Shown piece after piece: positions 1 to 21,336 of a stretch of DNA of 32,000 bases. The DNA comes from Pseudoalteromonas tetraodonis (GTDB lineage: Bacteria; Pseudomonadota; Gammaproteobacteria; Enterobacterales; Alteromonadaceae), in the NCBI RefSeq assembly GCF_002310835.1, contig NZ_CP011041.1, forward strand, positions 1,590,001 through 1,622,000, given 5' to 3'. Positions within the stretch are counted from its first letter, which is position 1. Each line of letters starts with the position of its first letter. The notes below the pieces were generated by a model. It was not told the DNA's origin, made no database searches, and worked only from the letters and a program-made list of their open reading frames with translations. A program made the translations under genes and the position numbers.

Positions 1-85
1 AGCGTGAACTTATAAGATTTGCTTGAGTCTGATAATCATTAACGGATAAGCAGTTAAATAAAGGACATAAATTTAAGGGAATATT

Positions 86-427
86 ATGGAGATAGGGATT
101 TTTACCGTCACAATTACGGGTGTTTTACTCACGGCTTTATTTATAAAGTACTTAACTTTTAGGCCTGAGCGTGTTTTTTCTGATATTGGAGAAAACGTTC
201 TACTTTGCAAAAAACCTCACTGGTTCAATAATAATAAAAGTAGAATGCAGCTTATTCCTAAAGGGGCGATAATTAAAATACAGCTAGCGTCAAATACCGT
301 TACTTTATTTTGTAAAAGTGGCAATGTTATTGATATACCAGTTCCAAACTCAAAGTTTACTGCCGATGTTTTGCAAAGCGCAAAAACACACTTTCACAAA
401 GCAGAAGTAGTAATACTAGACAACTAA
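86..427 (+). CDS. hypothetical small protein with one N-terminal transmembrane helix
   Basis: 113-codon ORF. AAGGGA lies 5 nt upstream of the ATG. The N-terminus is hydrophobic (GIFTVTITGVLLTALFI). No family recognised. Confidence 0.4.
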   Translation: MEIGIFTVTITGVLLTALFIKYLTFRPERVFSDIGENVLLCKKPHWFNNNKSRMQLIPKGAIIKIQLASNTVTLFCKSGNVIDIPVPNSKFTADVLQSAKTHFHKAEVVILDN

Positions 428-576
428 CACACCACTATGAGAACTGAATATAGATTTTAAAATTTTTTAAAAGGCGCTGAAAATCGATTAGTTAAAGTGG
501 ATGTCAGTTTGTTAATGTAATAAAGCGCCAAGATTACGCAGGTTATTGCTGTATTTAATTGTTTATCTCAATGGGT

Positions 577-912
577 TTAGGCTTTTTTAACAAATTTAGC
601 CGTCACCATCATTTCACCTATGCCATCTACTTTACAGTCAAGCTCATGATCTTTTTTATCAAGTACACGTCTTACTAAGGCTTTGGTGCCAATTTTAATA
701 ACTTGTGAGCTACCTTTAATTTTTAAATCTTTAGCTACGGTTACTTTGTCGCCATCAGCAAGTAAAGTGCCGTTTGCGTCTTTCACTAAAATAGCGTCTT
801 CGTCATTAGTAACATTCGGGTTCCACTCATAGGCACATTCTGGACAAATAAGCAGCTGTTGGTCTTCGTAAACGTATTCACATTGGCATTTAGGACAAGC
901 GGGAAGAGACAT
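577..912 (-). CDS. yjdM: zinc-ribbon protein, YjdM/PhnA family
   Basis: Two CxxC pairs (CPKC...CPEC) are followed by VKDANGTLLADGDKVTVAKDLKIKGSS..IKIGTK, closely resembling E. coli YjdM (PhnA). The track ORF begins at a GTG (921). The ATG at 912 (MSLPACPKC) gives the canonical ~111 aa. Confidence 0.9.
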   Translation of the reverse strand: MSLPACPKCQCEYVYEDQQLLICPECAYEWNPNVTNDEDAILVKDANGTLLADGDKVTVAKDLKIKGSSQVIKIGTKALVRRVLDKKDHELDCKVDGIGEMMVTAKFVKKA

Positions 913-1012
913 GATGATCACTTTTAGTATTAAATTTTGGCTATTTTAAAACACAAATTAGCAATAAAAAAGTTCATCAAAAATTTTTATCTTTACGCTA
1001 AAAATATCTCGT

Positions 1013-1041
1013 TTGTGTGCATCTAAAAAAGGGCATATAAA
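1013..1041 (+). promoter_or_regulatory. putative sigma70 promoter for the ATP-grasp operon
   Basis: TTGTGT (1013-1018), 17-nt spacer, TATAAA (1036-1041). The predicted start is near 1048, just before the first leader hairpin. The context is AT-rich, so a chance match is possible. Confidence 0.3.
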
Positions 1042-1049
1042 TCACCTGT

Positions 1050-1168
1050 CGCTTAAGCAATTTAAGCGCTAACGTTTATAGTAGATATTCGTTAAAGCAC
1101 CTATCGTATTAAGTGATTTGCTAAATGCTGCACTTAGTGCGATAGGTGTTTCTATTTGCTGTTTTATT
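1050..1168 (+). promoter_or_regulatory. structured 5' leader with three consecutive hairpins, the last terminator-like
   Basis: H1: CGCTTAA (1050-1056) pairs with TTAAGCG (1062-1068). H2: TAACG/CGTTA around 1072-1096. H3: 1095-1106 pairs with 1140-1151 (12 bp including one G-U), then a 3x3 internal loop, then TAAGTG (1110-1115) pairs with CACTTA (1131-1136). H3 is followed by the T-rich tail TTTCTATTTGCTGTTTTATT. Confidence 0.35.
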
Positions 1169-1227
1169 CGCTGAGCTAACTGATTAGCAAGGCTGCTTTG
1201 TATATTTTGACTTAACTAGGAAAAGTC

Positions 1228-2622
1228 GTGTTTAAAACCTTAATTGTGGTTGATAACAATGAGCAAACGCTTGCTCTTTCATTTGAAAATGTCATTACAT
1301 TTGACACCTATTTGCGTGACTACCCAAAACGCAACGAACCAAAAACCCGCATAATAAACCTATGTGATGCTAGCCAGTATTTAAGTAAAGGCTATTACTG
1401 TTCGTTACTTGCTGAGGCGCGCAAGCATCAAGTATTACCGAGTGTAAAAACAATTAACGCGCTTCGAAGCAATCAAGCGTCATTACAAAATATTGGCCAT
1501 ATTGATGGTGCTGTTTATTTTGGTCATGCGGGAAATGATCAACAAGCTAAAGCCGCTAAATCGGTATTTAAACAATATCCGGCACCTATTTTATTTGTTG
1601 ATGAGCAAGGCCTATTACAACAAGGATCATTAGCGTCACTAAGCGAGCAGCAGTATGCTGCGTTTATTGAAAAGCTAAATGAGTTTACCCAAACGCAATG
1701 GCGTATTGGTAAAGTAGAGCGCCGTTTTCGTTGGGATATGGCGATATTGGTTGATCATAACGAAAAAGTACCGCCAAGTGATAAAGATGCAATAGCCCGT
1801 TTTATAAAAGCAGCAGCGAAACATGGTATTAACGCAAAAGCACTCAGCTTTGAGGAAATAGACAATATTGCCCAATTTGATGCGTTGTTTATTCGCCAAA
1901 CAACAGCGATTGATCACCCAACGTACCGCCTTGCAAGTAAAGCGCAAAGCCTAGGTTTAGTGGTGATTGATGATGCGGAGTCTATTTTACGATGCTGTAA
2001 TAAAGTGTACTTACATGATGCATTCAATTATCAAAAAGTACCGAGCTTAAAAACCGTGGTGGTCGCAGATCAATCAAAAGACACAATTGAGCAACTAGAA
2101 GCGTCGTTTACTTATCCGCTGGTATTAAAAATGCCAGAAGGGTCGTTTTCTAAAGGCGTGTATAAAGTTGCTAATCGTGATGAATTAGAAGCTAAGCTTA
2201 GTGAGTTATTTGCTTTAAGTGCGCTAGTTCTGGCGCAAGAGTACATGTACACAGAATACGATTGGCGTGTAGGGGTACTTAATGGCCGTGCTATTTATGC
2301 GTGTCGTTATTTAATGGCGCGTAACCATTGGCAAATATATAACCATGACGCAAAACGCTTTTTCTCGGGTGGCTTTGAAACATTGCCTACGTTTGAATTA
2401 CCTAAAGCTGTACTGGATGCTGCTTTAAAAGCATGTAAAACCGTGGGTAAGGGTTTATACGGTGTGGATGTAAAAGAGCATCAAGGCCGTGCGTATGTGT
2501 TGGAAGTAAACGATAACCCAAGTATTGATCACAAAGTAGAAGATGGTTACTTAGGTGATGAGTTATACATGATCATTATGGATGAGTTTAAACAGCGCCT
2601 TGAAGCACGAGGTCGCGGCTAA
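1228..2622 (+). CDS. RimK-like ATP-grasp amidoligase with extra N-terminal (RLAN-type) domain
   Basis: GTG start with AGGA 6 nt upstream. The first ~150 aa lie outside the ATP-grasp fold (GYYCSLLAEARKHQVLPSVKTINAL). These are followed by a RimK-type pre-ATP-grasp and ATP-grasp region (YPLVLKMPEGSFSKGVYKV, DWRVGVLNGRAIY, AYVLEVNDNPS). Confidence 0.85.
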   Translation: MFKTLIVVDNNEQTLALSFENVITFDTYLRDYPKRNEPKTRIINLCDASQYLSKGYYCSLLAEARKHQVLPSVKTINALRSNQASLQNIGHIDGAVYFGHAGNDQQAKAAKSVFKQYPAPILFVDEQGLLQQGSLASLSEQQYAAFIEKLNEFTQTQWRIGKVERRFRWDMAILVDHNEKVPPSDKDAIARFIKAAAKHGINAKALSFEEIDNIAQFDALFIRQTTAIDHPTYRLASKAQSLGLVVIDDAESILRCCNKVYLHDAFNYQKVPSLKTVVVADQSKDTIEQLEASFTYPLVLKMPEGSFSKGVYKVANRDELEAKLSELFALSALVLAQEYMYTEYDWRVGVLNGRAIYACRYLMARNHWQIYNHDAKRFFSGGFETLPTFELPKAVLDAALKACKTVGKGLYGVDVKEHQGRAYVLEVNDNPSIDHKVEDGYLGDELYMIIMDEFKQRLEARGRG

Positions 2623-3767
2623 TGCTTAACGCATTGTCTGATATGACGATTTTGGCAGGAGCGGGTATTAGTATTCGCCCTGCAAGCGCGAGTGATTTAA
2701 ACGCCTTAGTGGCGCTTGAAAATGCCTGCTTTAGTAACGATAAGCTTAGTGCGCGAAGTTTAAAGCGTTGGCTTAGTGCTAAACATGGGATTTTATTAGT
2801 CGCCGAGCATAATTCGCAATTATGTGGTTACGGTTTGGTGTGGTGCCACAAAGGCACGCGGTTAGCGCGTTTGTATTCGTTAGCCGTATTACCGACGATG
2901 CAGGGCAAAGGAATCGCTAAAACGCTGCTTAAAGCCCTTGAAAAAGCCACTAGTGAGCGTGGGCGTATTTATTTGCGTTTAGAAGTGGCAGTAAATAACG
3001 ACAGCGCCATAGGGCTTTATAAAAGTGTAGGGTATCGAGTTTTTGGTCAATACAGTGATTATTACGATGATCACAGTGATGCCTTGCGCATGCAAAAAAA
3101 CATTCGCCAAACCAGCGAGTTGCAAGTTGAGCGTTTAACGCCATGGTATCAGCAAACTACCGAGTTTACCTGTGGGCCTGCGGCATTATTAATGGCAATG
3201 GGCTCGCTTGATAACAGCACAGAGCTGAGTCAGTCACATGAATTAGCTTTATGGCGTGAAGGCACCACCATTTTTATGACCTCGGGACATGGCGGTTGTC
3301 ATCCGTTTGGATTGGCATTGGCTGCAAATAAACGGGGATTTAAAAGTGAGGTCATTGTTAATACCTCAGAGCCATTATTTTTAGATGGGGTACGCAGTGA
3401 TAATAAAAAAACGGTGCTGGCGACAGTACATCAGCAATTTGTTGAAGGCATAGCCTCGGCTAATATTCCTGTTACCTATAAAGATGTTGAACTAACTGAT
3501 ATAGAAACGTGGTTAAACCAAGGTTTTAGTGTGTTACTGTTAATAAGCACTTATCGGTTTGATGGAAAAAAATCACCGCATTGGGTATGTGTTACTCATT
3601 TAGATGCGCACTGTGTGTACGTACATGACCCGTTTTGCGAACCAGGTAACGACAATCAATTAGCGATTGACTGTCAATATGTGCCAATTGCACGCAGCGA
3701 TTTTAGTAAAATGTCGGCTTTTGGTAGTCAAAGGCTTAGAACGGCAGTTGCTATTGGTAAAAAATAA
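2622..3767 (+). CDS. GNAT N-acetyltransferase fused to a C39/papain-like cysteine peptidase domain
   Basis: The ATG overlaps the upstream stop (TAATG, 2620-2624). The N-terminal ~160 aa are RimI-like GNAT (RLYSLAVLPTMQGKGIAKTLL, LRLEVAVNNDSAIGLYKSVGY). The C-terminal ~200 aa carry Q178-x5-C184 (QTTEFTCGPAAL; Cys codon 3171-3173), H320 (SPHWVCV; 3579-3581) and D336 (VYVHDP; 3627-3629). Confidence 0.85.
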   Translation: MLNALSDMTILAGAGISIRPASASDLNALVALENACFSNDKLSARSLKRWLSAKHGILLVAEHNSQLCGYGLVWCHKGTRLARLYSLAVLPTMQGKGIAKTLLKALEKATSERGRIYLRLEVAVNNDSAIGLYKSVGYRVFGQYSDYYDDHSDALRMQKNIRQTSELQVERLTPWYQQTTEFTCGPAALLMAMGSLDNSTELSQSHELALWREGTTIFMTSGHGGCHPFGLALAANKRGFKSEVIVNTSEPLFLDGVRSDNKKTVLATVHQQFVEGIASANIPVTYKDVELTDIETWLNQGFSVLLLISTYRFDGKKSPHWVCVTHLDAHCVYVHDPFCEPGNDNQLAIDCQYVPIARSDFSKMSAFGSQRLRTAVAIGKK

Positions 3768-3783
3768 TAGATTAGGATTTTAA

Positions 3784-4296
3784 GTGACATTTTTAGATTT
3801 TATCGATGTAGCCCCATACTCGTGGGCAGCTATTGGTACGGCGGCTTTTTGTGGGGCTATTATTGGTATAGAACGGCAATTGCGTGGCAAACCTGTAGGG
3901 ATCCGTACTTCTGCACTGATCACCTTAGGTACTTACTTGTTTTTATCGACTGCGTTTAATTTACAAGGGGATGTGATTGATCATTCTCGCGTAGTCGGGC
4001 AAATAATTACCGGCATCGGCTTTTTAGGCGCAGGCGTAATGCTCGCAAAAGACGGTGCGGTAGTCGGGGTTACCTCTGCTGCCACCATTTGGGTACTGGC
4101 CTCCATTGGCGTGATGATAGCAACCGAAAACCTCGGGGCTGCTATTAAGCTCTCGGTGCTTGTGGTGGGTATTTTATACGGCGTTGACGTGCTAGAAGCT
4201 AAGTTTAAAAGCTTAAGTAAAGGCGTGCATGCTAAAGTGAAAAGTTATCATAAACGCTATTATCGAAAAGACAGTATTGATACCGAGCGCCACTAA
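3784..4296 (+). CDS. MgtC/SapB-family membrane protein (short form)
   Basis: GTG start 16 nt after the upstream stop, with an AGGA SD. Motifs RQLRGKPVGIRTSALITLG and ITGIGFLGAGVML. About 4-5 hydrophobic helices. 170 aa. Confidence 0.85.
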   Translation: MTFLDFIDVAPYSWAAIGTAAFCGAIIGIERQLRGKPVGIRTSALITLGTYLFLSTAFNLQGDVIDHSRVVGQIITGIGFLGAGVMLAKDGAVVGVTSAATIWVLASIGVMIATENLGAAIKLSVLVVGILYGVDVLEAKFKSLSKGVHAKVKSYHKRYYRKDSIDTERH

Positions 4297-4310
4297 TTAG
4301 TGGCGTTTTT
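4288..4310 (+). terminator. intrinsic terminator of the ATP-grasp/GNAT/MgtC operon
   Basis: Perfect 18-nt palindrome CGCCACTAATTAGTGGCG (4288-4305) overlapping the TAA stop, followed by T5 (4306-4310). Confidence 0.7.
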
Positions 4311-5538
4311 ATGCGGGTAGTGCTTTGTTTTGGAAGCTAAGCGCATCTTCAATTGGTGCGGGGCGGCCAATAAAATAACCTTGTACACTGTCTACATTGA
4401 GTATTCTTAACGAGTTTAGTTCTTCTGCGGTTTCGATCCCTTCGGCAACAATGGTGCAGTCGATTGCTTTTGCAAATCCACACAGTGCTTTTGCCAGTAA
4501 AAATTTACGATCGTCTGTGTTTATATTTTGAGTCAGGCTAATATCTAATTTTATAATATCGGCCTCAAGCTCTAGTATGTGCTGAAATGAGGAAAAGCCA
4601 GCGCCTACATCGTCAATGGCCAAGCGCAGACCTTTGTTTCTGAGAGGCCTAAGTGCAGCTCGCATTTTTTCGTAATTAGAAATTGGCGAATGTTCAGTAA
4701 TTTCTAATACCACCCTAGTGCAGTCAATCTGTTGTAATGTTCGTTCAAGTGCGCCGCTAAGAATGTGCGAAGGCGAGCAATTAATGGCAATGTAAGTTGT
4801 ATTATTAAACTTTGCCATATTGGCTACTGCATTTTTAATGGCCAGCATTTCTAATGATTCACTTAAACCCACCTTACTCGCTTCTTTAAACCAGATATCA
4901 GGGGTTTTATAAGGGGTGGTAAAAAAACGTGCAAGCGATTCAAAACCTACAACTTTATTATTTAGTTGACTATACATAGGCTGAAAATAGATACTAATAT
5001 CATTATCGCTAATAATTTGCTCAATAGTTGATTTTGTGTGGTTGTACGATACGCTTTTATCTAAACTCTTTTCAATTAATCCGGTCGCTATTTCTGAAAT
5101 AATATTTAAAAAAGATAAATCGCGCTCATTTAAGCTCTCATCATGGTGTGATTTATAACAACAAAACGTACCATATAATTTCCCGTTCGACAGGTTGATA
5201 GGTACACCTATATATGCCCCTATACCTAATTTTTTTGTAACCGGCATCGCTTTGGTTATTGGGTTTGCTTTGGTATTAGTAATAATAGGGCTAAGCTTGT
5301 TGTCGGTGATTTGTTGGCAATACGTTTCATTAATCGGATCGGCATTACCCACTTTAACAATTTGGTTTTCAGAGGGGTTATCGACCACTTTAAAAACACG
5401 CTCATCGTTAATAAATTCAGATATAAAAGCAACATCCATATCTAAATGTTTACGAACCAAAGTGAGTAAGTTAGCTAGTTTAGCCTTAATGGATGCATTG
5501 TTGTGTTGTTCGACAAGCAAATTGGTTAATTCATCCAT
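4309..5538 (-). CDS. GAF-domain / EAL-domain c-di-GMP phosphodiesterase
   Basis: EAL-domain motifs are ESLARF, LEITEH, AIDDVGAGFSS, IKLD, AEGIET and QGYFIGRP. The N-terminal ~160 aa are GAF-like. GGGAGA SD lies 6 nt upstream of the ATG at 5538. Confidence 0.85.
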   Translation of the reverse strand: MDELTNLLVEQHNNASIKAKLANLLTLVRKHLDMDVAFISEFINDERVFKVVDNPSENQIVKVGNADPINETYCQQITDNKLSPIITNTKANPITKAMPVTKKLGIGAYIGVPINLSNGKLYGTFCCYKSHHDESLNERDLSFLNIISEIATGLIEKSLDKSVSYNHTKSTIEQIISDNDISIYFQPMYSQLNNKVVGFESLARFFTTPYKTPDIWFKEASKVGLSESLEMLAIKNAVANMAKFNNTTYIAINCSPSHILSGALERTLQQIDCTRVVLEITEHSPISNYEKMRAALRPLRNKGLRLAIDDVGAGFSSFQHILELEADIIKLDISLTQNINTDDRKFLLAKALCGFAKAIDCTIVAEGIETAEELNSLRILNVDSVQGYFIGRPAPIEDALSFQNKALPA

Positions 5539-5770
5539 CGGCTATCTCCCTATGTTAATACCACTACACCTAATGAGTAATACTATAATTTATATATATA
5601 AAAAGATCTAATCAAGGCCTATCAATCTTTGTTCACGCATATTTAAATTTAGGCTAATTTTAGCTGTTATAGTAAGTAGGCTTACATATATGTTGTAGTT
5701 ATTATCTATTTTTTAATCCTAGGCTGATATGCTTGAAGTTTATGGGAGGTAATTATTTAAAGGGATATTA

Positions 5771-6816
5771 ATGCATCAGCATTCATTTGATAAAACAGAA
5801 TCAGTCAGATTAACCGTATTCAAAAATATAAGCTTAATAATTACATTAGTTGCTTTAGTTGTCACTTACGTTAATGTGTTTATGAGTAAAAATTATGTTT
5901 TGGGCTTTATTGAACTTGCATTAGCTTTTTTTTGTATTTATACGTATCACCAAACGAGAACAAATCGCTCTAAATTATGGCATCGCTATGCTGTTATTTA
6001 TACTTACTTTGCAGTTGTGTTGCTTGCTATCACCGCAATTAACTTAGAGACTGGCATATCGCATTGGGTGTGTACTCTTCCTGTATTGGTTTACTTATTG
6101 TTTGGAAAAAGCATGGCTTTATAAGCAGCTTTAGCTTTTTGATTACGTTGTTACTGCTGTTTTATGTGATCGACAAACGGTTAGTTGAAATAAATTTTAA
6201 GCTCATCATTAATCTTTCTCTGACGTATATTATCGTGTGGGGTGTTTCACATGTTTTTGAATCGATGAGAGCCTCTAATCAAGAGGAAATTATTAATTTA
6301 GCATTACGCGACAGCTTAACGCAGGCTTATAACCGGCGTGCTTTTAAAAGCCATTTTCATAACCATATCGACTTTTCTAACCCCTATTGTTTTGCCTTAG
6401 CTGATCTGGATTTTTTTAAAAAAGTAAACGATAAATATGGGCACGATGCCGGTGATGCAGTGCTGGTACAATTAACACAGTTATTTAAAAAACATTTAGG
6501 CGATGAACATGTTTATCGTTTTGGCGGTGAAGAATTTACATTGGTGGTAAATGACGACATAGAGGTCGCTATAATCACAATGGATAAGCTAAGAACTGAC
6601 ATACAAAATCATCAATTTACTTATATGCAGAGCACGTTAAACATCACTATTAGTATTGGCTTGGTCGGTATTGATGCACATGAGCATACTCACCTGAGTG
6701 AAATTTTAAGATTAGCCGATAATTATTTATATTTAGCTAAAAACAACGGTCGAAACTGCGTTGTCAACGGCCTGACTAAAATATCAAACAAGGGCAAAGA
6801 AACATTAACCAAATAA
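5771..6816 (+). pseudogene. membrane-anchored GGDEF diguanylate cyclase interrupted by a 1-nt frame change
   Basis: The 5771-6124 ORF contains only TM helices. The 6064-6816 ORF continues with TM helices plus a GGDEF domain (DLDFFKKVNDKYGHDAGD, RFGGEEF, LYLAKNNGRN), but its only start is a TTG. The two frames join cleanly if the A5 run at 6106-6110 is read as A6 (..LLFGKKHGFISSF..). Confidence 0.6.
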
Positions 6817-7815
6817 CTTTCGTCTGACTACTTTTCTGTATTCGCTCGGGGTTTGGCTCAATACCTTTTTAAACACACGGGTTAAATGGCCTTGATCGTT
6901 ATAACCAACTTCTAACGCGACTTCCTGAATTGATAAGTTCGATGAGGCCAGTAATTCTTTTGCACCTTCAACACGTAGCTGCTGCCAGTACTCTATAGGG
7001 CTTTGATTTGTAGCAAGTCGAAACCTGCGTGTAAACGTGCGGTAGCTTAAGCTAAATTGTGCCGCGACTTCTTGTAAATCTAACTCACTAGATAAATTAG
7101 TTTTTAACCAAAATTGTATTTGTGCAATAAGTTCATCAGCATGTCGGTTAACGGCGCCTTCTAAATAGCGTTGATCTTCGTAGGGTTTACGTATTTCATG
7201 TGAAAAGTTCCGCTCAACATGCTGCGCCGCTTCTTTGCCATAGTATTGGCTAATAATATGAACAATAACGTCAGCTAAGGCATTTAAACTGGCTACCGTA
7301 TACATGCGCTCTGATTGGGTAATAAAAAAATCAGGTTTTAAGCTAACGTTTGGATAATCTTGAGAAAATTGCTTGGCATAATGCCAGTGAGTGGTTGCAG
7401 GGTGACCATCAAGTAAACCGGCTTCTGCGAGCAAACAATTGCCGGTACCAACACCAATAATATGGCTTCCCATGGTAAAACTCTCATTGAGCCAATTAAC
7501 TATTGGTTGATTCGTTTTAACAACAGGGCGTGGATTACGCCAAATACCCGGAACAATGATTAAATCGCAATAGGGGGCGTTATCACTGCTGCAATCAGGC
7601 ACGATGGCTAAACCTGTTCTGGTTGCAATAGGAGCCATATTTTTTGCAATTAAATGAATATTCAGTGCTCTGAAGTTTTTTTTACTAGTGTGTCCCTTGG
7701 CAAACGCTTCACCTGCTCTGAGCATTTCAATTGGCAAGGTTAAACTAGTTACCAGTAGGTGCGAGTAAACAGCAATGGCTATATTTAATGGTGGATTTGT
7801 TGGATTATTGCTCAT
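6805..7815 (-). CDS. GlxA-type transcriptional regulator (DJ-1/PfpI-like N-domain + AraC HTH)
   Basis: N-terminal motifs CDLIIVPGIW and GVGTGNCLLAEAGLLDGHPATTHW. C-terminal AraC HTH (SYRTFTRRFRLATNQSPIEYWQQLRVE, IQEVALEVGYNDQGHLTRVFKK). Its 3' end overlaps the convergent GGDEF ORF by 12 nt. Confidence 0.85.
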   Translation of the reverse strand: MSNNPTNPPLNIAIAVYSHLLVTSLTLPIEMLRAGEAFAKGHTSKKNFRALNIHLIAKNMAPIATRTGLAIVPDCSSDNAPYCDLIIVPGIWRNPRPVVKTNQPIVNWLNESFTMGSHIIGVGTGNCLLAEAGLLDGHPATTHWHYAKQFSQDYPNVSLKPDFFITQSERMYTVASLNALADVIVHIISQYYGKEAAQHVERNFSHEIRKPYEDQRYLEGAVNRHADELIAQIQFWLKTNLSSELDLQEVAAQFSLSYRTFTRRFRLATNQSPIEYWQQLRVEGAKELLASSNLSIQEVALEVGYNDQGHLTRVFKKVLSQTPSEYRKVVRRKLFG

Positions 7816-7847
7816 TTAAATGCTCCGACCAGTTGTTTTTGGCCTTT

Positions 7848-7876
7848 TGTGCTTAATATTTGGCTATTAAAGCACA
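7848..7876. promoter_or_regulatory. imperfect inverted repeat in the divergent regulator/KAS intergenic (candidate operator)
   Basis: TGTGCTTAAT (7848-7857) and ATTAAAGCACA (7866-7876) are reverse complements apart from one extra A. Confidence 0.25.
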
Positions 7877-7942
7877 AAGATGTGTGCGTAATCCATTTAA
7901 ACTAACTTCATATTCTTATAACACGTTTTTTAAAGGTAAATT

Positions 7943-9850
7943 ATGACCGCATTACCCGTCATTGTCGGCATGGGAGGCATTAATGCCGCTGGCCGTACTT
8001 CTTTTCATCAAGGTTATCGTCGTATCGTGTTAGATAGCTTAGAGTCTCAAGCTCGCCAAGAAACATTTTTAGGCCTCGTCACATTAATGAATTTAGTGAG
8101 TGTTGTGAATGGACAACTACAAGACATGCAGGGCAATAATGTTGAGCAAAGCGACATAGAAGCACGTTTTGGTGAGCAAATTATTGCAGGTACATTAATT
8201 CGCAAAATTGAAAAACAACACTTTGATGTAGATGCCACGCCGTGGCAGCAAAAAATGACGTTAACCGCATCGGATGAAAACGCGATTGTGTTTGAAACAC
8301 GCCGTCGTGATTTACCTTCGCCAGTACCTGAAAGTTGGCACGTTGAAGAGCTTGAAAATAAAAAAGTGAAAGTAACTATTGCGGCTCAATTTGATATTAA
8401 ACATGATTCTACTCGCGATAATCCAATTAAATCTGCTGGGCAACTACCCACAGGGTTTGATCCGTCAATTATGTACAATAGCCGCTACCAACCTCGTGGT
8501 TTACAAGCTACTATTTTTGCTGCCACCGATGCAATAAAATCAACCGGACTTGATTGGCAATACATTATGAATAGTGTTGAGCCTGATAAAATTGGTACCT
8601 ATTCAGCATCGGTTATTGGCCAAATGGACGATAAAGGTTTAGGTGGGTTAGTCAAAGCGCGCCAGCAGGGTGATCGCGTCAGCACTAAGCAGCTAGCACT
8701 GGGTTTAAATACAATGTCGACCGATTTTATCAATGCCTATGTTACGGGCAATGTAGGGACTACTTTTTCTACATCGGGTGCGTGTGCTACTTTTTTATAT
8801 AACTTGCGCGCAGCAGTAAATGATATACAAGCAGGGCGCACACGTGTTGCAATTGTGGCAAGTGTAGAATGTGCGATTACCCCTGAAGTGGTTGAAGGCT
8901 TTGGCAATATGAGTGCGCTGGCTAATATTGAAGGTTTGCGCCGCTTAGATGATTTAAGTAATGACGATGAACCTGATTATCGTAGAAGCAGCCGCCCATT
9001 TGGCGAAAACTGTGGCTTTACTTTAGGTGAAGGCGCACAAGTGGCTATATTAATGGATGATGCGCTGGCACTTGAACTAGGTGCAGACATTATGGGCTGT
9101 GTGCCTGATGTATTTGTTAACGCCGATGGAGTAAAAAAATCAATTACTTCACCTGGGCCTGGTAACTACATTACCATGGCAAAATCGGCTGCACTTGCCA
9201 GTAGCTTACTAGGTAAAGAGGCATTACAGCAACGTAGCTTTATTTTAGCCCATGGTTCAAGCACACCACAAAACCGCGTAACTGAGTCGTTAATTTATCA
9301 TAAAGTAGCGCAAACATTTGCAATAGATAATTGGAAAGTAACCGCCCCTAAAGCGTATGTTGGCCATACTATAGCACCTGCCAGTGGCGATCAGCTTGCC
9401 ATTGCCTTAGGTGTATTTAGTCATAATATTATGCCGGGTATTACCACTATAGATAAAGTGGCTGATGATGTTTATGCAGATCATTTAGATATTCGTAACA
9501 GTCACTATGATTGTGGTGATATGGATATTGCATTTATAAATTCTAAAGGGTTTGGTGGTAATAATGCAACAGCCACAGTGCTTTCAGCAAAAGTAACGAT
9601 GCAAATGCTTGCTAAGCGTCATGGCGATGAAATGATGGGGCTCTATACCAGCAAACATGCAGCGGTAAAAGAAGCACAACAGCACTATCAACAACAAGCA
9701 GATTTAGGTCAATACACGCTAGTTTATCGTTTTGGTGATGGGCTGATTGATGAAAATGACATTGTTATTGATGAGCACAGCATTCAGCTGCCAGGCTTTG
9801 AAAAAGCAATTATATTCAATACAACACATTCCTATCAAGATATGTTCTAA
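7943..9850 (+). CDS. fabY: long-form beta-ketoacyl-ACP synthase, FabY-like
   Basis: 635 aa, about 200 aa longer than FabB/FabF. KAS I/II-type Cys-His-His residues sit in TSGACATFLYN, ILAHGSSTPQN and YVGHTIAPASGDQ. The N-terminus LPVIVGMGGINAAGRTSFHQGYRR and the length match my recollection of P. aeruginosa FabY (PA5174). Not verified by search. Confidence 0.8.
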   Translation: MTALPVIVGMGGINAAGRTSFHQGYRRIVLDSLESQARQETFLGLVTLMNLVSVVNGQLQDMQGNNVEQSDIEARFGEQIIAGTLIRKIEKQHFDVDATPWQQKMTLTASDENAIVFETRRRDLPSPVPESWHVEELENKKVKVTIAAQFDIKHDSTRDNPIKSAGQLPTGFDPSIMYNSRYQPRGLQATIFAATDAIKSTGLDWQYIMNSVEPDKIGTYSASVIGQMDDKGLGGLVKARQQGDRVSTKQLALGLNTMSTDFINAYVTGNVGTTFSTSGACATFLYNLRAAVNDIQAGRTRVAIVASVECAITPEVVEGFGNMSALANIEGLRRLDDLSNDDEPDYRRSSRPFGENCGFTLGEGAQVAILMDDALALELGADIMGCVPDVFVNADGVKKSITSPGPGNYITMAKSAALASSLLGKEALQQRSFILAHGSSTPQNRVTESLIYHKVAQTFAIDNWKVTAPKAYVGHTIAPASGDQLAIALGVFSHNIMPGITTIDKVADDVYADHLDIRNSHYDCGDMDIAFINSKGFGGNNATATVLSAKVTMQMLAKRHGDEMMGLYTSKHAAVKEAQQHYQQQADLGQYTLVYRFGDGLIDENDIVIDEHSIQLPGFEKAIIFNTTHSYQDMF

Positions 9851-9893: not shown

Positions 9894-10203
9894 AATGTAT
9901 GAACCCATATTGTAGTTTAACTAATGCGCTAATTAGTTCCTTAACAAAAATATTAAAACTTCACCTCTTTGCAAATACTTCAAATTACTAATCTCTTCTT
10001 CCGCATTAAAAATAAAGCACCTTGATAAATTGAAAATATTAGGTTTGTTGCATACAATATAATAATTAATTAGTAGTATGTTATTTATTTTATTAAGTTA
10101 AAAAGTATTATTTATTATGCATCAAGAACTTTATAAATAGTTACTATAATTTTTGCTCAGATAGGTTAAATACTCAATTTTATTAATTACTTTAGGAGTA
10201 GTG

Positions 10204-12018
10204 ATGAAATTAATACCATTAAAACGCTGGCTTATAGGGCAAAAAAGTCTCACTTTATGTACTTTACTCTTTCTGTCTAAACTTAGTTTTGCGTCTATTA
10301 TTTTATTTGATGACAAACCACGTAATGGTACTTCATTGTGGTCAACCTCATCAAGTGAATCGACTTTAACTAAAATTGGTGAGCCTGTAGCTGATGGCGA
10401 AAGAGCTATATTAATGCAGGTACACTACTGGACTCAATCAGGATTACGTATTGCTCAAGTACCTCCTTTTAAAAATTCAATACTTGAGGCAAAAATATAC
10501 AGAAAATCAGGAAATAAGGGCACTTTAATGTTTCGTCGCGGTAACGATTCATTAAAAATAAATCTTGATGAAACCAATAACGAATTTTGGACATTGGATG
10601 GTTTGCCTGGCCATAATAATTTTTCAGACGATACATGGCACACGATTAGAATCAATCTCAATGGCTTTAATCTTGATGAAAATGAGAAAGTCCTGGCTAT
10701 TGGTATTCAAGGCCCTCTTGGAACAGGTAGATTTTACATGGACTCGGTTTCCTTTGTTGAGGGAGAGCCAGATAATAACATTTCTCCGCCGTTAGCTGGT
10801 AATTGGGAGCTGACTTTTGAAGATACTTTTAATTCAACTTTATTAAACCCTAATAATTGGCATGTTGGAAAGCAATATCTAGGAATGAGTGGTATCGCAG
10901 GTAATGCTGGGCGAGAAACTATTCGCATTGAAAATGAAATGTTACGGTTTGAAGCAGAAAAAAACACATTAAATCAAGGAACCAATCGTTACTTTTATAA
11001 AGCCGCTGAGGTAAGTACTTTTCGTAAATTTAGACAAAAATATGGTTACTTTGAAGCCAAAATTAAGTATGACTCAGTACATGGTGCTTGGCCTGCATTT
11101 TGGTTACTACCTGACAAAGGCATTTATGGTAACGATACTTATAGGAGGCAGTCATTATTAAAATTTAATCTTGATGATGTATCTACTACTATTTCTTCTG
11201 CATTATTAAGATTTAAGATCTCTGAAGCAAACACTCAAAGCAGCATAGCTGTGCATAAAACACTTTCCGCAGATTGGTCCCAAGATACTGTAACTTGGAA
11301 TACTAAACCGCAGGTCGATCCCTTATGGTTTAGTCATAGCTATGGAGAGGTTACGGGAAACATAATTGAAGTGGATGTTACCAGTTATATAAGAGAGCAA
11401 AAAAGTTCTGGTAAAGAGGCGAGCTTTGCATTGATTGACAATTATATGCGTAGCCAGCTTATAAAAATTTTTAGCAGTGAAGCGAATAATATTTCTGATA
11501 GGCCCGCTTTAATTGTAAATGAAGAAAGTTTATTCCCGACTGAAGATGCTTTTGTGCGTGGAGGTAATTATGCAGATACTAATTATGGTCAAGAACCATT
11601 TCTTTTAATTAAAGACACTTGGGGAGATACCTCACCTACATTCGATCAGGGAATGGAGTTTGATATTATGGAGAGTTTAGGTATCTGGGGGGAAGACATC
11701 AGTATCTCAGCTCTGCATTGGGATGGTTACGGTAGCCAACATAAGTCAGTAAATTCCGGCGAGCTTTATCATAATTATTCCTCAGATGGTTTCCATATAT
11801 ATGGCATGCATTGGCAGCCTGGTTATGTCGGTATGTATATAGATGGTGAAAAAGTCTGGGAGCACTATGACGACCGAGTTGGAAGTTTACCTTCTTATAT
11901 TATTTTATCGTTACAAGTAGGTGGTTGGGATGGTAATGAAAAGAATATCAGTGATGATTTTGAGGCTAACATGCTAGTAGATTTCGTTAGGGTCTGGAGT
12001 AATTCAGAGTTCAATTAA
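10204..12018 (+). CDS. secreted glycoside hydrolase family 16 protein with N-terminal CBM-like domain and a large internal insertion
   Basis: AGGAG (10194-10198) lies 5 nt before the ATG at 10204; the track starts at the GTG at 10201. A signal-peptide-like N-terminus is present. GH16 hallmarks are GAWPAFWLLP and the catalytic E-x-D-x-x-E motif MEFDIME (11656-11673), plus a C-terminal FHIYGMHWQP...MLVDFVRVW. About 175 aa separate WPAFW from EFDIME. Confidence 0.8.
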   Translation: MKLIPLKRWLIGQKSLTLCTLLFLSKLSFASIILFDDKPRNGTSLWSTSSSESTLTKIGEPVADGERAILMQVHYWTQSGLRIAQVPPFKNSILEAKIYRKSGNKGTLMFRRGNDSLKINLDETNNEFWTLDGLPGHNNFSDDTWHTIRINLNGFNLDENEKVLAIGIQGPLGTGRFYMDSVSFVEGEPDNNISPPLAGNWELTFEDTFNSTLLNPNNWHVGKQYLGMSGIAGNAGRETIRIENEMLRFEAEKNTLNQGTNRYFYKAAEVSTFRKFRQKYGYFEAKIKYDSVHGAWPAFWLLPDKGIYGNDTYRRQSLLKFNLDDVSTTISSALLRFKISEANTQSSIAVHKTLSADWSQDTVTWNTKPQVDPLWFSHSYGEVTGNIIEVDVTSYIREQKSSGKEASFALIDNYMRSQLIKIFSSEANNISDRPALIVNEESLFPTEDAFVRGGNYADTNYGQEPFLLIKDTWGDTSPTFDQGMEFDIMESLGIWGEDISISALHWDGYGSQHKSVNSGELYHNYSSDGFHIYGMHWQPGYVGMYIDGEKVWEHYDDRVGSLPSYIILSLQVGGWDGNEKNISDDFEANMLVDFVRVWSNSEFN

Positions 12019-13477: not shown

Positions 13478-13906
13478 TTATTTAAATTTTTTAACATACC
13501 TAAGCGTTATGAAGTTTATTACTGCCAACAAAATAGCTATTTCATAGCGGCTGTACGCAATAGCGATACCAATTAAACCCATATTCCAAATACTCGCAGC
13601 TGTTGCTGTTCCAGATGTAGACTGGTTATTTTTTAAAATAGCGCCGCCACCAATAAAACCAATACCTGTAATAATACCTTGTAACATTTTAGATTGCGCC
13701 TCTGCGCCCTCCAAAACTGACATAGCAATCAGTGCATAACCACATGATGCGACGGCAACTAAAGGAAACGTTCTTAGACCTGCACCATTATGGCTATGCT
13801 CTCTATCATATGCCATTGGCAGGGCAAGTAAATACGCCATGCCAAGATGAATCAAGTTATCAATAATGTCTCTCCACTGTAGATCAATTTCCATTGCTAT
13901 TTCCAC
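13478..13906 (-). CDS. MgtC/SapB-family membrane protein (short form), second copy
   Basis: Motifs GLRTFPLVAVASCGY and ITGIGFIGGGAILKN. 142 aa (138 aa if the second ATG is used). Confidence 0.8.
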   Translation of the reverse strand: MEIAMEIDLQWRDIIDNLIHLGMAYLLALPMAYDREHSHNGAGLRTFPLVAVASCGYALIAMSVLEGAEAQSKMLQGIITGIGFIGGGAILKNNQSTSGTATAASIWNMGLIGIAIAYSRYEIAILLAVINFITLRYVKKFK

Positions 13907-20764: not shown

Positions 20765-20862
20765 ACACAGTATTTAATAGGGTGCTTAGTGTAACTCTGA
20801 TAAACTGCGCCGCTACTAAACAGCTTTTGTTTGCTGAGCGCTTATTTACCTTGGGATTTACT

Positions 20863-21336
20863 TTGACAAATAACGATATTTTACGCCGTATTCGCTACAC
20901 CTTTGATTTAACTGATTCAGCTATGGTTGATGTTTTCGCCGCAGCAGCGCAGAGCGTAAGCACTGAGCAGGTGATTGCATGGTTAACTAAAGAGGGCGAG
21001 CCTGGGTATACCCCAATAAGTGACACTGAATTTGCGGTATTTTTAAATGGTTTTATAAATACCAAGCGCGGCAAGCGTGAAGGTGAGCAGCCAGAGCCTG
21101 AAAGTAAATTGAACAACAATATTATTTTTATGAAGCTACGTATTGCTTTAAATATGAAAGCAGAAGACGTGATCGCGACCTTGGCGTTGGTTGATTTTGA
21201 TTTAAGTAAACATGAGCTAAGCGCATTTTCACGTAAAGTTGAAAACAAGCATTACCGTGTGTGTAACGATCAAATATTGCGTTTATTTTTAACCGGTGTA
21301 CAGCGTACTTTTCGCCCAGATGGCGAAAAAGCTTAA
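20863..21336 (+). CDS. DUF1456-family protein (YehS-like)
   Basis: Two repeats of the DUF1456-type motif (TNNDILRRIRYTFDL and NNIIFMKLRIAL). The in-frame TTG at 20863, with GGGA 6 nt upstream, gives 157 aa, similar to E. coli YehS. The track's GTG at 20782 adds 27 poorly conserved-looking residues. Start is uncertain. Confidence 0.7.
   Translation: MTNNDILRRIRYTFDLTDSAMVDVFAAAAQSVSTEQVIAWLTKEGEPGYTPISDTEFAVFLNGFINTKRGKREGEQPEPESKLNNNIIFMKLRIALNMKAEDVIATLALVDFDLSKHELSAFSRKVENKHYRVCNDQILRLFLTGVQRTFRPDGEKA

Follow-up and report, generated by a model that had tools for sequence, protein, structure and literature searches.

Within the 32,000-nt stretch of Pseudoalteromonas tetraodonis DNA analysed here (the window), ORF1 and ORF2 form a widely conserved gene pair, in which an RLAN–ATP-grasp ligase is coupled to a GNAT–DUF3335 (C39-like) fusion protein; the MgtC-family gene that follows them is not part of this core. 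The pair, a genuine uncharacterised system, is conserved in many bacteria and catalogued in silico only. In agreement with the earlier note on this DNA, our literature search found only comparative-genomic mentions of the ligase/GNAT–peptidase pair and no experimental work. We tentatively propose, with a probability of roughly 40%, that the module makes and turns over a short N-acetylated acidic peptide, that MgtC is a facultative component and that a leader hairpin gates expression.

Organization and control signals of the operon

Three co-directional genes lie on the forward strand: ORF1 (1228–2622, GTG start, 464 aa), ORF2 (2622–3767, ATG start, 381 aa) and ORF3 (3784–4296, GTG start, 170 aa). 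The ORF2 start overlaps the ORF1 stop in a TAATG at 2620–2624, only 16 nt (3768–3783) separate ORF2 from ORF3, and an AGGA (3774–3777) stands 6 nt upstream of the ORF3 GTG. The earlier note had described these features, and all are in place. It had also set a perfect 18-nt palindrome plus T5 immediately downstream of ORF3; both elements are present, but the palindrome (CGCCACTAATTAGTGGCG, 4288–4305, with T5 at 4306–4310) contains the ORF3 stop codon (4294–4296) rather than lying 3' of the gene. RNA folding gives this terminal hairpin 10 bp and −14.7 kcal/mol (z = −3.68). The hairpin (4285–4308), which contains the palindrome, together with the T5 forms the predicted intrinsic terminator of the operon (4285–4310, forward strand). 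The stop codon of a convergent GAF-EAL gene (4309–4311) falls in the T-tract, and the predicted terminator is common to the operon and this neighbour. Genes of c-di-GMP metabolism (GAF-EAL, GGDEF) adjoin the operon in the window; the position of the GAF-EAL gene is not kept across loci.

An alignment of 12 Pseudoalteromonas upstream regions reveals a putative sigma-70 promoter at 1013–1041 on the forward strand (−35 TTGTGT, 1013–1018; 17-nt spacer; −10 TATAAA, 1036–1041), in which both the −10 and the first three bases of the −35 (TTG) persist even where the upstream gene is different. This promoter was not among the predictions of a consensus promoter scanner. The conserved block 5' of it (about 985–1012, TTATCTTnACGCTAAAAATAtCTCGTT) may be an operator. 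Between the promoter and the ORF1 ribosome-binding site lies a conserved leader hairpin (1095–1165, forward strand), whose arms (1095–1115 and 1131–1151) pair over 21 bp and which runs on into a U-rich tract, UUUCUAUUUGCUGUUUUAUU; the hairpin proper (1095–1151) lies outside the region that the earlier note had covered. The leader (1044–1230) folds at −56.9 kcal/mol (z = −3.75), and RNAalifold supports 20 pairs in the hairpin, 5 of them with compensatory changes, around a loop of variable length. A covariance model of the leader finds one match per locus, just 5' of ORF1, in 19/19 genome and 18/18 metagenome loci with the Pseudoalteromonas-type trio, the hairpin being kept in all 37. In the other locus types searched the model gave no match except a marginal one elsewhere in locus L004 (21.7 bits, E 0.19), and comparison with Rfam returned no match at E ≤ 1. 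The hairpin looks like a terminator or attenuator. The gene overlap, tight spacing, single strong terminator, conserved promoter and leader, and gene order in 37 loci together fit the proposal, made previously, that ORF1–ORF2–ORF3 is one transcription unit.

Domain composition of the three proteins

ORF1 consists of an RLAN domain (about residues 1–165; nt 1228–1722, forward strand) followed by pre-ATP-grasp and ATP-grasp regions of the RimK/LysX clade (about residues 166–464), as delimited with Pfam and NCBIfam. The RLAN match (PF14401, 97.9 bits) covers residues 26–87 only, corresponding to model positions 2–63 of 150, and Pfam assigns residues 271–434 to RimK/Dala_Dala_lig_C ATP-grasp. The earlier description of a RimK-type ATP-grasp behind a separate N-terminal domain thus agrees with Pfam, and the motifs quoted for it are present. 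Across 25 homologues, K301, Q337, D345-W346-R347, D414, E426 and N428 are invariant; from RimK-type ATP-grasp motifs, we take these to be the ATP/Mg2+-binding set. The best NCBIfam matches are the RimK family (78.2 bits, cut-off 143.4), LysX (74.6 bits, equivalog cut-off 275.6) and MptN, with CofF matching more weakly; all of these enzymes ligate at a terminal Glu or carboxylate. Profile comparison with the PDB gives LysX (9.5e-8) and RimK (1e-6), and the AF2 model (pLDDT 72.2) has LysX, ArgX, RimK and Ddl as its nearest structures. ORF1 is probably an ATP-dependent carboxylate–amine ligase, with alpha-L-glutamate as the predicted amino acid. It is unlikely to be an S6-modifying RimK orthologue because it fails both curated RimK cut-offs, that of the family model and that of the S6-Glu ligase equivalog (32.1 bits, cut-off 331).

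ORF2 joins a RimI-like GNAT (about residues 15–165; Pfam match 31–140) to DUF3335, or 'Peptidase_C39 like' (PF11814, 305.6 bits, residues 173–378; nt 3138–3755, forward strand). The GNAT is structurally nearest to the N-alpha-acetyltransferases RimI and Ard1, above all to E. coli RimI (5isv, TM 0.86), and its acetyl-CoA motif, Q94-x-x-G97-x-A99, is invariant in the homologue alignment. The Gln-Cys-His-Asp pattern that had been noticed in the C-terminal domain corresponds to Q178, C184, H320 and D336, invariant in 20 homologues, and Pfam likewise upholds the reading of ORF2 as a GNAT fused to a C39/papain-type domain. In the AF2 model (pLDDT 85.6), C184 lies at the N-terminus of helix 184–196, H320 in strand 317–327 and D336 just past strand 331–335. 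As to the papain/C39 fold, this topology and the weak matches of the DUF3335 profile in the PDB (BtrH-like and double-glycine protease domains, the best being BtrH-like at E about 1e-3) speak for it, whereas the 3D matches listed for ORF2 are GNAT structures only. The domain is predicted to be a papain/C39-like cysteine peptidase or transacylase. We count the invariance of the ATP-grasp residues, the acetyl-CoA motif and the Gln/Cys/His/Asp set as pointing to catalytic competence of both proteins.

ORF3 is a short MgtC-family protein, as the earlier note had it: a MgtC/SapB-family membrane domain alone (PF02308, 101.3 bits), without the C-terminal soluble domain. It scores 71–78 bits against the MgtC equivalogs of NCBIfam (cut-offs 214–255) and belongs to a distinct subfamily with a conserved LYGVDxLE...GVH extension. 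The domain scores of ORF1 and ORF2, and likewise of ORF3, are far beyond chance.

Gene neighbourhoods and the proposed function

Of 80 loci, each representing one species and carrying an ORF2 relative, 70 have an ORF1 relative within 8 kb, which bears out the co-conservation expected for these two genes. In 51/80 the ORF1 relative immediately precedes the ORF2 relative in the same orientation (median gap 0 nt, mostly overlapping stop and start), in 8/80 DUF2817 alone parts the two, and in 10/80 they are convergent or divergent; Azospirillum (Alphaproteobacteria) has the two genes the other way round, still overlapping. DUF2817, which weakly matches AstE_AspA_cat and MpaA, occurs in 14/80 loci. 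A further 369-aa protein, found in 13/80, is a divergent M42 peptidase (PF05343, 29.8 bits for the copy in locus L043) with H-x-D and EE motifs read from the alignment. The M42-like and M14-like families are exopeptidases typically acting on small peptides; both genes are absent from the Pseudoalteromonas window. One variant (L123/L124) carries a GNAT without the peptidase domain.

The trio as a whole, also supposed to be co-conserved, is not: MgtC occurs in only 21/80 loci, and a single Pseudoalteromonas clade accounts for 18 of these. Relatives of ORF3 at 54–73% identity occur in many unrelated contexts, with a ligase nearby in only 3/54 metagenome loci, and in Pseudomonas aeruginosa (PA1345) and Aeromonas the ligase stands alone. 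Not every RLAN ligase, then, depends on MgtC or on ORF2. These counts, and a second MgtC paralogue 9 kb away in the window (only 29% identical to ORF3), favour the view that ORF3 is a syntenic passenger whose adjacency in Pseudoalteromonas is functionally meaningless, the real unit being ORF1–ORF2. We regard this as quite unlikely. MgtC is tightly coupled, by start/stop overlap or very short gaps, in four independent arrangements (ORF1-ORF2-MgtC; ORF1-DUF2817-ORF2-MgtC; M42-ORF1-MgtC; ORF1-GNAT-MgtC-2OG oxygenase). A DUF155 membrane protein occupies the MgtC position in 13/80 loci, and the two alternate strictly, occurring together in 0/80. The ligase-linked MgtC copies of Neptunomonas, Oleiphilaceae and other Pseudoalteromonas are also more alike (68–85% identity to ORF3) than the linked ligases (about 58–68%). 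ORF3 would serve the ligase as a facultative membrane partner.

In the scheme we infer, the functional core would be a two-gene, translationally coupled amidoligase module. ORF1, of the RimK/LysX/MptN/CofF clade, would activate a terminal carboxylate as acyl-phosphate and add one or possibly several alpha-amino acids, L-glutamate being the likeliest, with the family-specific RLAN domain selecting the acceptor. The ORF2 GNAT would N-alpha-acetylate the free amino end of acceptor or product, a cap that would also block aminopeptidase attack. The papain/C39-like domain would either hydrolyse the product, to turn it over or set its length, or serve as a Cys-thioester transacylase like BtrH and CtaG; peptide assembly by paired ATP-grasp and papain-like enzymes is known from the butirosin and closthioamide pathways (PMC7183216). 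The most likely product would be a short cytoplasmic N-acetyl-(Asp/Glu)n oligopeptide, made by a bacterial counterpart of the NAT8L/RIMKLA-B/aspartoacylase/GCPII route to N-acetyl-aspartyl-glutamate. Fuller systems in other lineages also possess an M42-like aminopeptidase together with a carboxypeptidase or deacylase of the M14/AstE-AspA-like type. A specialised MgtC protein would be co-translated as facultative third component in the Pseudoalteromonas lineage, with DUF155 elsewhere, presumably coupling the module to the membrane for export, sensing or ion/energy homeostasis, and the promoter-proximal terminator-like hairpin probably gates expression. The compatible solute suggested earlier by comparison with NAGGN receives no direct support, ORF2 scoring 25.6 bits against the Ngg (NAGGN synthetase) model (cut-off 569).

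Counting against an N-acetyl-peptide product, the nearest relatives of the ATP-grasp (LysX, ArgX, RimK) and of the GNAT (RimI, Ard1) all act on protein termini: RimK acts on S6, LysX on LysW and RimI on S18. This fits a protein-tailing role equally well. ORF1 would then attach an amino-acid (poly-Glu-like) tail to one particular protein, at its C-terminus or on a side chain, the GNAT would acetylate a protein N-terminus and the peptidase (with M14 and M42 enzymes elsewhere) would erase or trim the tag. Such a writer/eraser pair would resemble TTLL/CCP or RimK/RimB, with MgtC or DUF155 as possible target or anchor. The GNAT scores 81.7 bits against a RimI cut-off of 86.4 (NCBIfam), and the RLAN domain, about 40 residues of which are near-invariant in the homologue alignment, could be a protein-docking module. 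Eukaryotic DUF155 proteins support mitochondrial translation; RMND1, one of these, resides in the inner mitochondrial membrane, and mutations in it lead to respiratory-chain disease. For peptidases linked to ATP-grasp ligases, comparative genomics has predicted a role in undoing peptide tags (PMC3495828; PMC4431377). We nevertheless consider protein modification somewhat unlikely, given that ORF1 is far under the S6-ligase cut-off (32 versus 331 bits), that no LysW-like carrier or small acidic-tailed protein gene is conserved in the neighbourhoods examined, that MgtC and ORF2 have basic rather than acidic C-termini, and that the usual substrates of M42-type aminopeptidases and of MpaA-like M14 enzymes are short free peptides. 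Far less probable is recycling or remodelling of cell-wall-derived or imported peptides, such as gamma-Glu muropeptides, by re-ligation, acetylation and cleavage instead of dedicated metabolite synthesis, with the membrane partner serving uptake. Papain-like domains commonly act on peptidoglycan peptides, and the sole named relative of DUF2817 is the murein tripeptide amidase MpaA. The Ddl-type models and structures among the ATP-grasp matches, however, reflect generic likeness, with RimK/LysX models scoring higher; the conserved genes beside the pair in the neighbourhoods examined include no mur, mpl, amp or transporter gene, and the proteins of the pair are without signal peptides, the GNAT needing cytoplasmic acetyl-CoA. 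We favour an N-acetylated acidic peptide over a ribosomal-protein role because of the M42-like and M14/aspartoacylase-like metallopeptidases found elsewhere, accessory genes that also lend support to a ligate–acetylate–cleave sequence acting on a short peptide or N-acetyl-oligopeptide.

Comparison with known systems

The module shares with RimK, RimI and Pseudomonas RimABK the ATP-grasp clade, the conserved ATP/Mg residues and a RimI-like GNAT partner, and it resembles RimK with the retropepsin RimB in its ligase-plus-protease logic and in the c-di-GMP genes next door in the window. It differs in the 165-aa RLAN domain, absent from RimK (about 20% identity), in a protease that is papain-like and fused to the GNAT, and in an EAL neighbour that is not positionally conserved. 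LysX/ArgX–LysW systems provide the top structural and profile matches of the ORF1 ATP-grasp part, and there the ligase has a metallo-hydrolase partner for product release; here, in contrast, there is no LysW-like carrier gene and there are no lysine or arginine biosynthetic neighbours, and LysX systems are without RLAN and the GNAT–peptidase fusion. BtrJ/BtrH (butirosin) and CtaD/CtaG (closthioamide) likewise pair an ATP-grasp ligase with a clan-CA Cys-His-Asp enzyme, and the best HHpred families of CtaG are PF11814 (DUF3335) and BtrH (PMC7183216). Those pathways are thiotemplated on ACP/PCP carriers in secondary-metabolite clusters, whereas no carrier protein or further biosynthetic gene is found here, and the likeness is weak (E about 1e-3).

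NAGGN synthesis (Ngg, AsnO, peptidase) also combines GNAT, ATP-grasp and peptidase for an N-acetylated dipeptide; the GNAT is fused to the ligase in Ngg and to the peptidase here, where asnO is missing. ORF3 has the N-terminal membrane domain (PF02308) of Salmonella MgtC; at 170 aa it is without the C-terminal soluble domain and under the equivalog cut-offs, and its genetic setting is a ligase operon, not mgtCBR. The mammalian NAAG pathway (NAT8L, RIMKLA/RIMKLB, aspartoacylase, GCPII) has no counterpart of the RLAN domain, papain-like domain or membrane partner, and both metallopeptidases are absent from the window. Its enzyme classes match the GNAT, RimK-like ligase, AstE/AspA-like M14 protein DUF2817 and clan-MH M42-like protein by analogy rather than orthology, and such a set would suit the making and degrading of an N-acetylated acidic di- or oligopeptide.

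Operon layout and the leader of ORF1

The earlier note read three genes as a single ligate–acetylate–cleave operon, and its description of the DNA is borne out by the sequence in coordinates, junctions and ribosome-binding signal. ORF1 (1228–2622, GTG start, 464 aa; an RLAN–ATP-grasp ligase), ORF2 (2622–3767, ATG start, 381 aa; a GNAT–DUF3335 fusion) and ORF3 (3784–4296, GTG start, 170 aa; an MgtC-family protein) all lie on the plus strand. The ORF1 stop overlaps the ORF2 start in the TAATG at 2620–2624, a gap of 16 nt separates ORF2 from ORF3, and an AGGA lies 6 nt 5' of the ORF3 GTG. Pfam supports every one of the domain calls made from the sequence, and at 98% identity ORF1 and ORF2 match P. 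tetraodonis entries named 'RimK family protein' and 'peptidase C39 family protein'. The 18-nt palindrome (4288–4305) and T5 tract (4306–4310) are present as described, but the palindrome does not come after the gene: the ORF3 stop codon lies within it. The initial observation is therefore confirmed, and the interpretation placed on it is partly supported.

Folding of the operon end gives a 10-bp RNA hairpin (−14.7 kcal/mol, z = −3.7). A convergent gene for a GAF–EAL c-di-GMP phosphodiesterase (4309–5538, minus strand) shares this terminator hairpin with the operon, and its stop sits inside the T-tract. The promoter/terminator scanner overlooked both this terminator and a hairpin in the ORF1 leader, and both were set by folding instead.

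The 300 nt 5' of ORF1 are strongly conserved in Pseudoalteromonas, even where the upstream gene is a different one. Alignment of this region gives a conserved block at about 985–1012 and a putative sigma-70 promoter (−35 TTGTGT at 1013–1018, 17-nt spacer, −10 TATAAA at 1036–1041), both on the plus strand; folding and alignment together place a 21-bp hairpin on the same strand (1095–1115 paired with 1131–1151), followed by a U-rich tract. The leader fold has an energy of −56.9 kcal/mol (z = −3.75), and 5 of the 20 consensus pairs in the hairpin carry compensatory changes. The variable loop length speaks for an RNA element and against a DNA operator of fixed spacing. In a covariance-model search, all loci of the Pseudoalteromonas type with MgtC (19/19 from genomes and 18/18 from metagenomes; 37/37) carry the hairpin a single time, immediately 5' of ORF1; it is absent from the other locus types searched with the model, apart from a marginal match elsewhere in one of them (L004; 21.7 bits, E 0.19). 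Rfam returned no match at E ≤ 1 for positions 1–8000 of the window, and a known riboswitch or other RNA was discarded on this result. From the putative transcription start, predicted near 1047, up to the hairpin there is no ATG and no obvious ORF for a leader peptide. The hairpin resembles a transcription attenuator and is possibly a new cis-regulatory RNA; it would provide a handle on the inducing condition.

Farther along the window, a MASE6–GGDEF diguanylate cyclase gene (5771–6816, plus) is split over two overlapping frames, with MASE6 positions 1–111 in the ORF at 5771–6124 and MASE6 positions 104–168 plus GGDEF in the ORF at 6064–6816. The split indicates a frameshift, and with it either a pseudogene or a sequencing error. 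An AraC/DJ-1-type regulator (6805–7815, minus) is divergent from a 635-aa beta-ketoacyl-synthase-like protein (7943–9850, plus), and the two are syntenic 3' of the three genes in 17 Pseudoalteromonas loci. The CBM96 + GH16 glycoside hydrolase (10201–12018, plus) and DUF1456 (20782–21336, plus) genes are ordinary neighbours unrelated to the operon.

A two-gene core with variable partners

One genome per species was scanned, and at least 394 species encode an ORF2 relative; we analysed the best 80 of these (52–86% identical), nearly all of them marine Gammaproteobacteria, plus one Pontiella. An ORF1 relative lies within 8 kb of the ORF2 relative, in any arrangement, in 70/80 loci: directly upstream on the same strand and mostly with overlapping stop and start (51), with a DUF2817 gene alone between the two (8), convergent (8), divergent (2) or as a partial copy at a contig end (1). 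Nine loci have no ORF1 relative in the available flank, including three with about 8 kb on both sides and one (L032) with 7.9 kb upstream and 2 kb downstream; the last (L050) has a weak, non-orthologous ATP-grasp match alone (22% identity over 226 aa). Azospirillum has the two genes side by side and overlapping, in the reverse order. The conserved core is two genes, ORF1 and ORF2. The co-conservation of all three genes implied by the operon claim does not extend to ORF3, since MgtC is found in just 21/80 loci, 18 of which form one Pseudoalteromonas clade.

The ligase also occurs without an ORF2 partner, in Aeromonas and in the PA1345 region of P. aeruginosa, and tblastn finds relatives of the ligase alone in Legionella, Tistrella, Aeromonas and P. 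aeruginosa plasmid records. In P. aeruginosa NZ_CP133752.1, the RLAN–ATP-grasp homologue of the PA1345-like region (locus L164, 5908–7497; 529 aa, 42% identical) adjoins pagP, an SDR gene, a Glu/Asp ABC transporter and ggt, with no GNAT–peptidase partner. PA1345 appears with a putative CpxR-binding site in PMC12802237.

ORF3 carries an MgtC domain (PF02308, 101.3 bits versus 31.4, residues 18–138) but falls under both MgtC equivalog cut-offs (77.7 versus 214 and 71.3 versus 255 bits). Whereas the Salmonella-type MgtC has a C-terminal soluble domain, the 170 residues of ORF3 comprise the membrane domain only, with a short basic tail in place of the soluble domain. The ligase-linked MgtC copies are 68–85% identical to ORF3 and are probably not mere passengers of the ligase; tight coupling is seen in four gene orders: ORF1–ORF2–MgtC; ORF1–DUF2817–ORF2–MgtC in an Oleiphilaceae genome; M42-like–ORF1–MgtC with ORF2 convergent in Neptunomonas; and ORF1–GNAT–MgtC–2OG oxygenase in a metagenome. 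The converse link is weak, with a ligase near MgtC relatives (54–73% identity) in 3/54 metagenome loci. In 13 loci a DUF155 membrane protein stands downstream where MgtC stands in others, and no locus has both.

The metagenome arrangement (contig Ga0255753_1000560, locus L123, 4073–7177) encodes the RLAN-ligase, a 158-aa GNAT alone without the peptidase domain, MgtC and a 2OG-Fe(II) oxygenase. The GNAT start follows the ligase stop with no gap, and overlaps of 4 and 8 nt join GNAT to MgtC and MgtC to the oxygenase. This variant indicates that some lineages can do without the peptidase domain. The window also contains a second MgtC paralogue (13478–13906, minus; 142 aa, PF02308 92.5 bits), 9 kb from ORF3 and 29% identical, which is found in the related Pseudoalteromonas loci L006, L007 and L016 as well.

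Other lineages carry additional peptidase genes. The DUF2817 gene, placed between ORF1 and ORF2 in 14 loci, encodes a zinc hydrolase of M14 type that weakly matches AstE/AspA and the murein tripeptide amidase MpaA. Just 5' of ORF1 in 13 loci is a gene for a 369-aa protein with no Pfam match at default thresholds; it is a divergent M42 (glutamyl-aminopeptidase/TET) member with H-x-D and EE motifs read by eye from the alignment. The fullest locus (L021) runs M42-like / RLAN-ligase / DUF2817 / GNAT–DUF3335 / DUF155, and the extended system therefore joins a ligase and an acetyltransferase with as many as three peptide hydrolases.

Domains of the ligase and the GNAT–peptidase fusion

ORF1 consists of RLAN (approximately residues 1–165) followed by a pre-ATP-grasp domain and an ATP-grasp domain. 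RLAN scores 97.9 bits (PF14401, gathering score 25), and the match covers only positions 2–63 of the 150-position model because the second half of the domain, which is variable, has been shortened by deletions in the Pseudoalteromonas copies; distant homologues align to model positions 1–150. The first 80 residues are almost invariant among 25 homologues, down to 61% identity. A search of solved structures in the PDB gave no RLAN relative, returning spurious matches to designed helical repeats alone. The idea that RLAN is a duplicated pre-ATP-grasp domain was rejected at the sequence level, with hhalign probabilities of 0.4–1.1% against the pre-ATP-grasp or whole ATP-grasp profile.

The ATP-grasp part of ORF1 matches RimK and Dala_Dala_lig_C in Pfam, and residues K301, Q337, D345-W346-R347, D414, E426 and N428, which we take from their motifs to be the ATP/Mg2+-binding set, are invariant in the 25 homologues. 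For the AlphaFold model (pLDDT 72) the nearest structures are LysX, ArgX, RimK and Ddl, with LysX, RimK and Ddl matched by Foldseek at E of about 1e-13, and a profile search of the PDB agrees. ORF1 scores below the cut-offs of both the RimK family model (TIGR00768, 78.2 versus 143.4 bits) and the S6-Glu ligase equivalog (NF007764, 32.1 versus 331 bits). Its sequence places ORF1 in the RimK/LysX/MptN/CofF clade, but not as a RimK orthologue.

The GNAT half of ORF2 (Acetyltransf_1, 58.6 bits in Pfam) retains the acetyl-CoA motif Q94-x-x-G97-x-A99, with G95, G97 and A99 invariant, and is structurally closest to the N-alpha-acetyltransferases RimI and Ard1 (TM 0.86 and rmsd 2.1 between RimI 5isv and the ORF2 model, which has a pLDDT of 85.6). 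Against the RimI equivalog (TIGR01575) ORF2 scores 81.7 bits, just under the cut-off of 86.4, and it is a fusion in a different context.

The C-terminal half matches DUF3335 ('Peptidase_C39 like', PF11814) with 305.6 bits. Q178, C184, H320 and D336 are invariant among ORF2 homologues, and an SGHGGCHP motif is also conserved. In the model C184 opens a helix (184–196), H320 lies in a strand (317–327) and D336 follows a strand (331–335), with local pLDDT of about 85–94; the predicted arrangement of Cys, His and Asp, with Gln as the oxyanion residue, is papain-like. ORF2 falls below the thresholds for C39 itself (PF03412, 16.5 versus 22 bits; PF13529, 23.3 versus 24), and neither the operon nor the conserved neighbours include an ABC exporter or precursor-peptide gene. 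The domain belongs to PF11814, a sister family of C39 proper. The DUF3335 profile gave weak matches in the PDB to a BtrH-like protein (E 1.3e-3) and a double-glycine protease (2.1e-3); with the whole ORF2 model, GNAT structures fill the 50 Foldseek matches listed, so that search gives no readout for this half. DUF3335 is a small family, with 595 clusters at 50% identity among 1.84 billion representatives. Most members are about 370 aa long with the domain at residues 160–370, and the GNAT fusion is therefore its dominant form. A classification of papain-like peptidases mentions DUF3335 once, as 'often fused to GNAT' (PMC10318531).

Possible products and comparison with known systems

Our full-text literature search found no experimental study of any member and comparative-genomic mentions alone, in agreement with the earlier note; searches for VC2332, PA1345, DUF3335, DUF2817, PF14401 and RimK+MgtC returned incidental mentions alone. 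The general scheme of a ligase, a capping GNAT and a reversing peptidase is stated in related comparative-genomic papers, and the system was probably first described by Iyer et al. in 2009. Among ATP-grasp amidoligase systems it is a real, already catalogued variant that would repay biochemical work and would not surprise specialists. As far as we could find, what is added here is that the core has two genes, that its MgtC and DUF155 partners are facultative and interchangeable, that accessory enzymes of M42-like and M14-like type go with it, and that the leader hairpin is clade-specific.

ATP-grasp amidoligases make glutathione, D-Ala-D-Ala, poly-Glu on S6 and tubulin, NAAG (N-acetyl-aspartyl-glutamate) and cofactor tails. 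The ORF1–ORF2 pair is a compact module that, judged by its sequence, appears clearly active, and it is carried by at least about 400 species representatives, mainly marine Gammaproteobacteria and also Azospirillum. Identifying its product would annotate PF14401 and PF11814 and might account for the MgtC and DUF155 membrane proteins that consist of the domain alone. Deletion or expression should take ORF1 and ORF2 together, and the informative comparators are the lineages with M42-like and M14-like peptidases.

The reading we prefer, with a probability of roughly 0.4, is that ORF1 and ORF2 make and turn over a short acidic peptide carrying an N-acetyl group, and that MgtC joins them as a membrane partner in particular lineages. 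ORF1 would ligate the peptide, the GNAT would cap it and the hydrolases would degrade it. The combination of one ligase, one acetyltransferase and up to three hydrolases points in this direction, and two of the three hydrolase types (M14- and M42-like) are exopeptidases acting on short peptides. The main rival, a RimK/RimI-like writer/eraser system that tags proteins, is nearly as plausible, since for both the ligase and the GNAT the closest solved relatives act on protein termini. The peptidase domain may also transfer rather than hydrolyse, by analogy with the closthioamide and butirosin pathways, in which ATP-grasp ligases are partnered by papain-like transacylases and the best HHpred families of CtaG include PF11814 (PMC7183216). 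Quite improbable, in our estimate, is a more elaborate scheme in which the RLAN ligase, the GNAT and a swappable membrane protein (MgtC or DUF155) would form a membrane-coupled maker of N-acetylated oligo-Glu/Asp (a NAAG-like polyanion) or a protein tailer, controlling Mg2+/energy homeostasis or translation and switched in Pseudoalteromonas by a new attenuator RNA of the leader; if true, this would be the first biochemical role for RLAN/DUF3335 and for the widespread domain-only MgtC and DUF155 proteins. A role in anti-phage defence was rejected, as PADLOC gave no match at E ≤ 1e-3 for the three proteins.

Among known systems, CfmP of Klebsiella, an ATP-grasp protein of fimbrial modification, belongs to the TupA-like family and is unrelated. 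The GAF–EAL neighbour recalls RimA of the Pseudomonas RimABK system, but the EAL position is not conserved across loci; EAL/GGDEF genes, which are abundant, occur near the pair in several loci in varying positions and orientations, and a RimABK-like link to c-di-GMP was set aside. The synthetase of the osmolyte N-acetylglutaminylglutamine amide (NAGGN) is Ngg, a bifunctional GNAT/ATP-grasp enzyme whose model (TIGR03103) gives ORF2 only 25.6 bits versus 569, over residues 82–141 alone. The preferred reading of a short N-acetylated acidic peptide has its counterpart in the mammalian NAAG pathway, where NAT8L, RIMKLA/B, aspartoacylase and GCPII represent enzyme classes matched by the extended system, a likeness of analogy and not of orthology.
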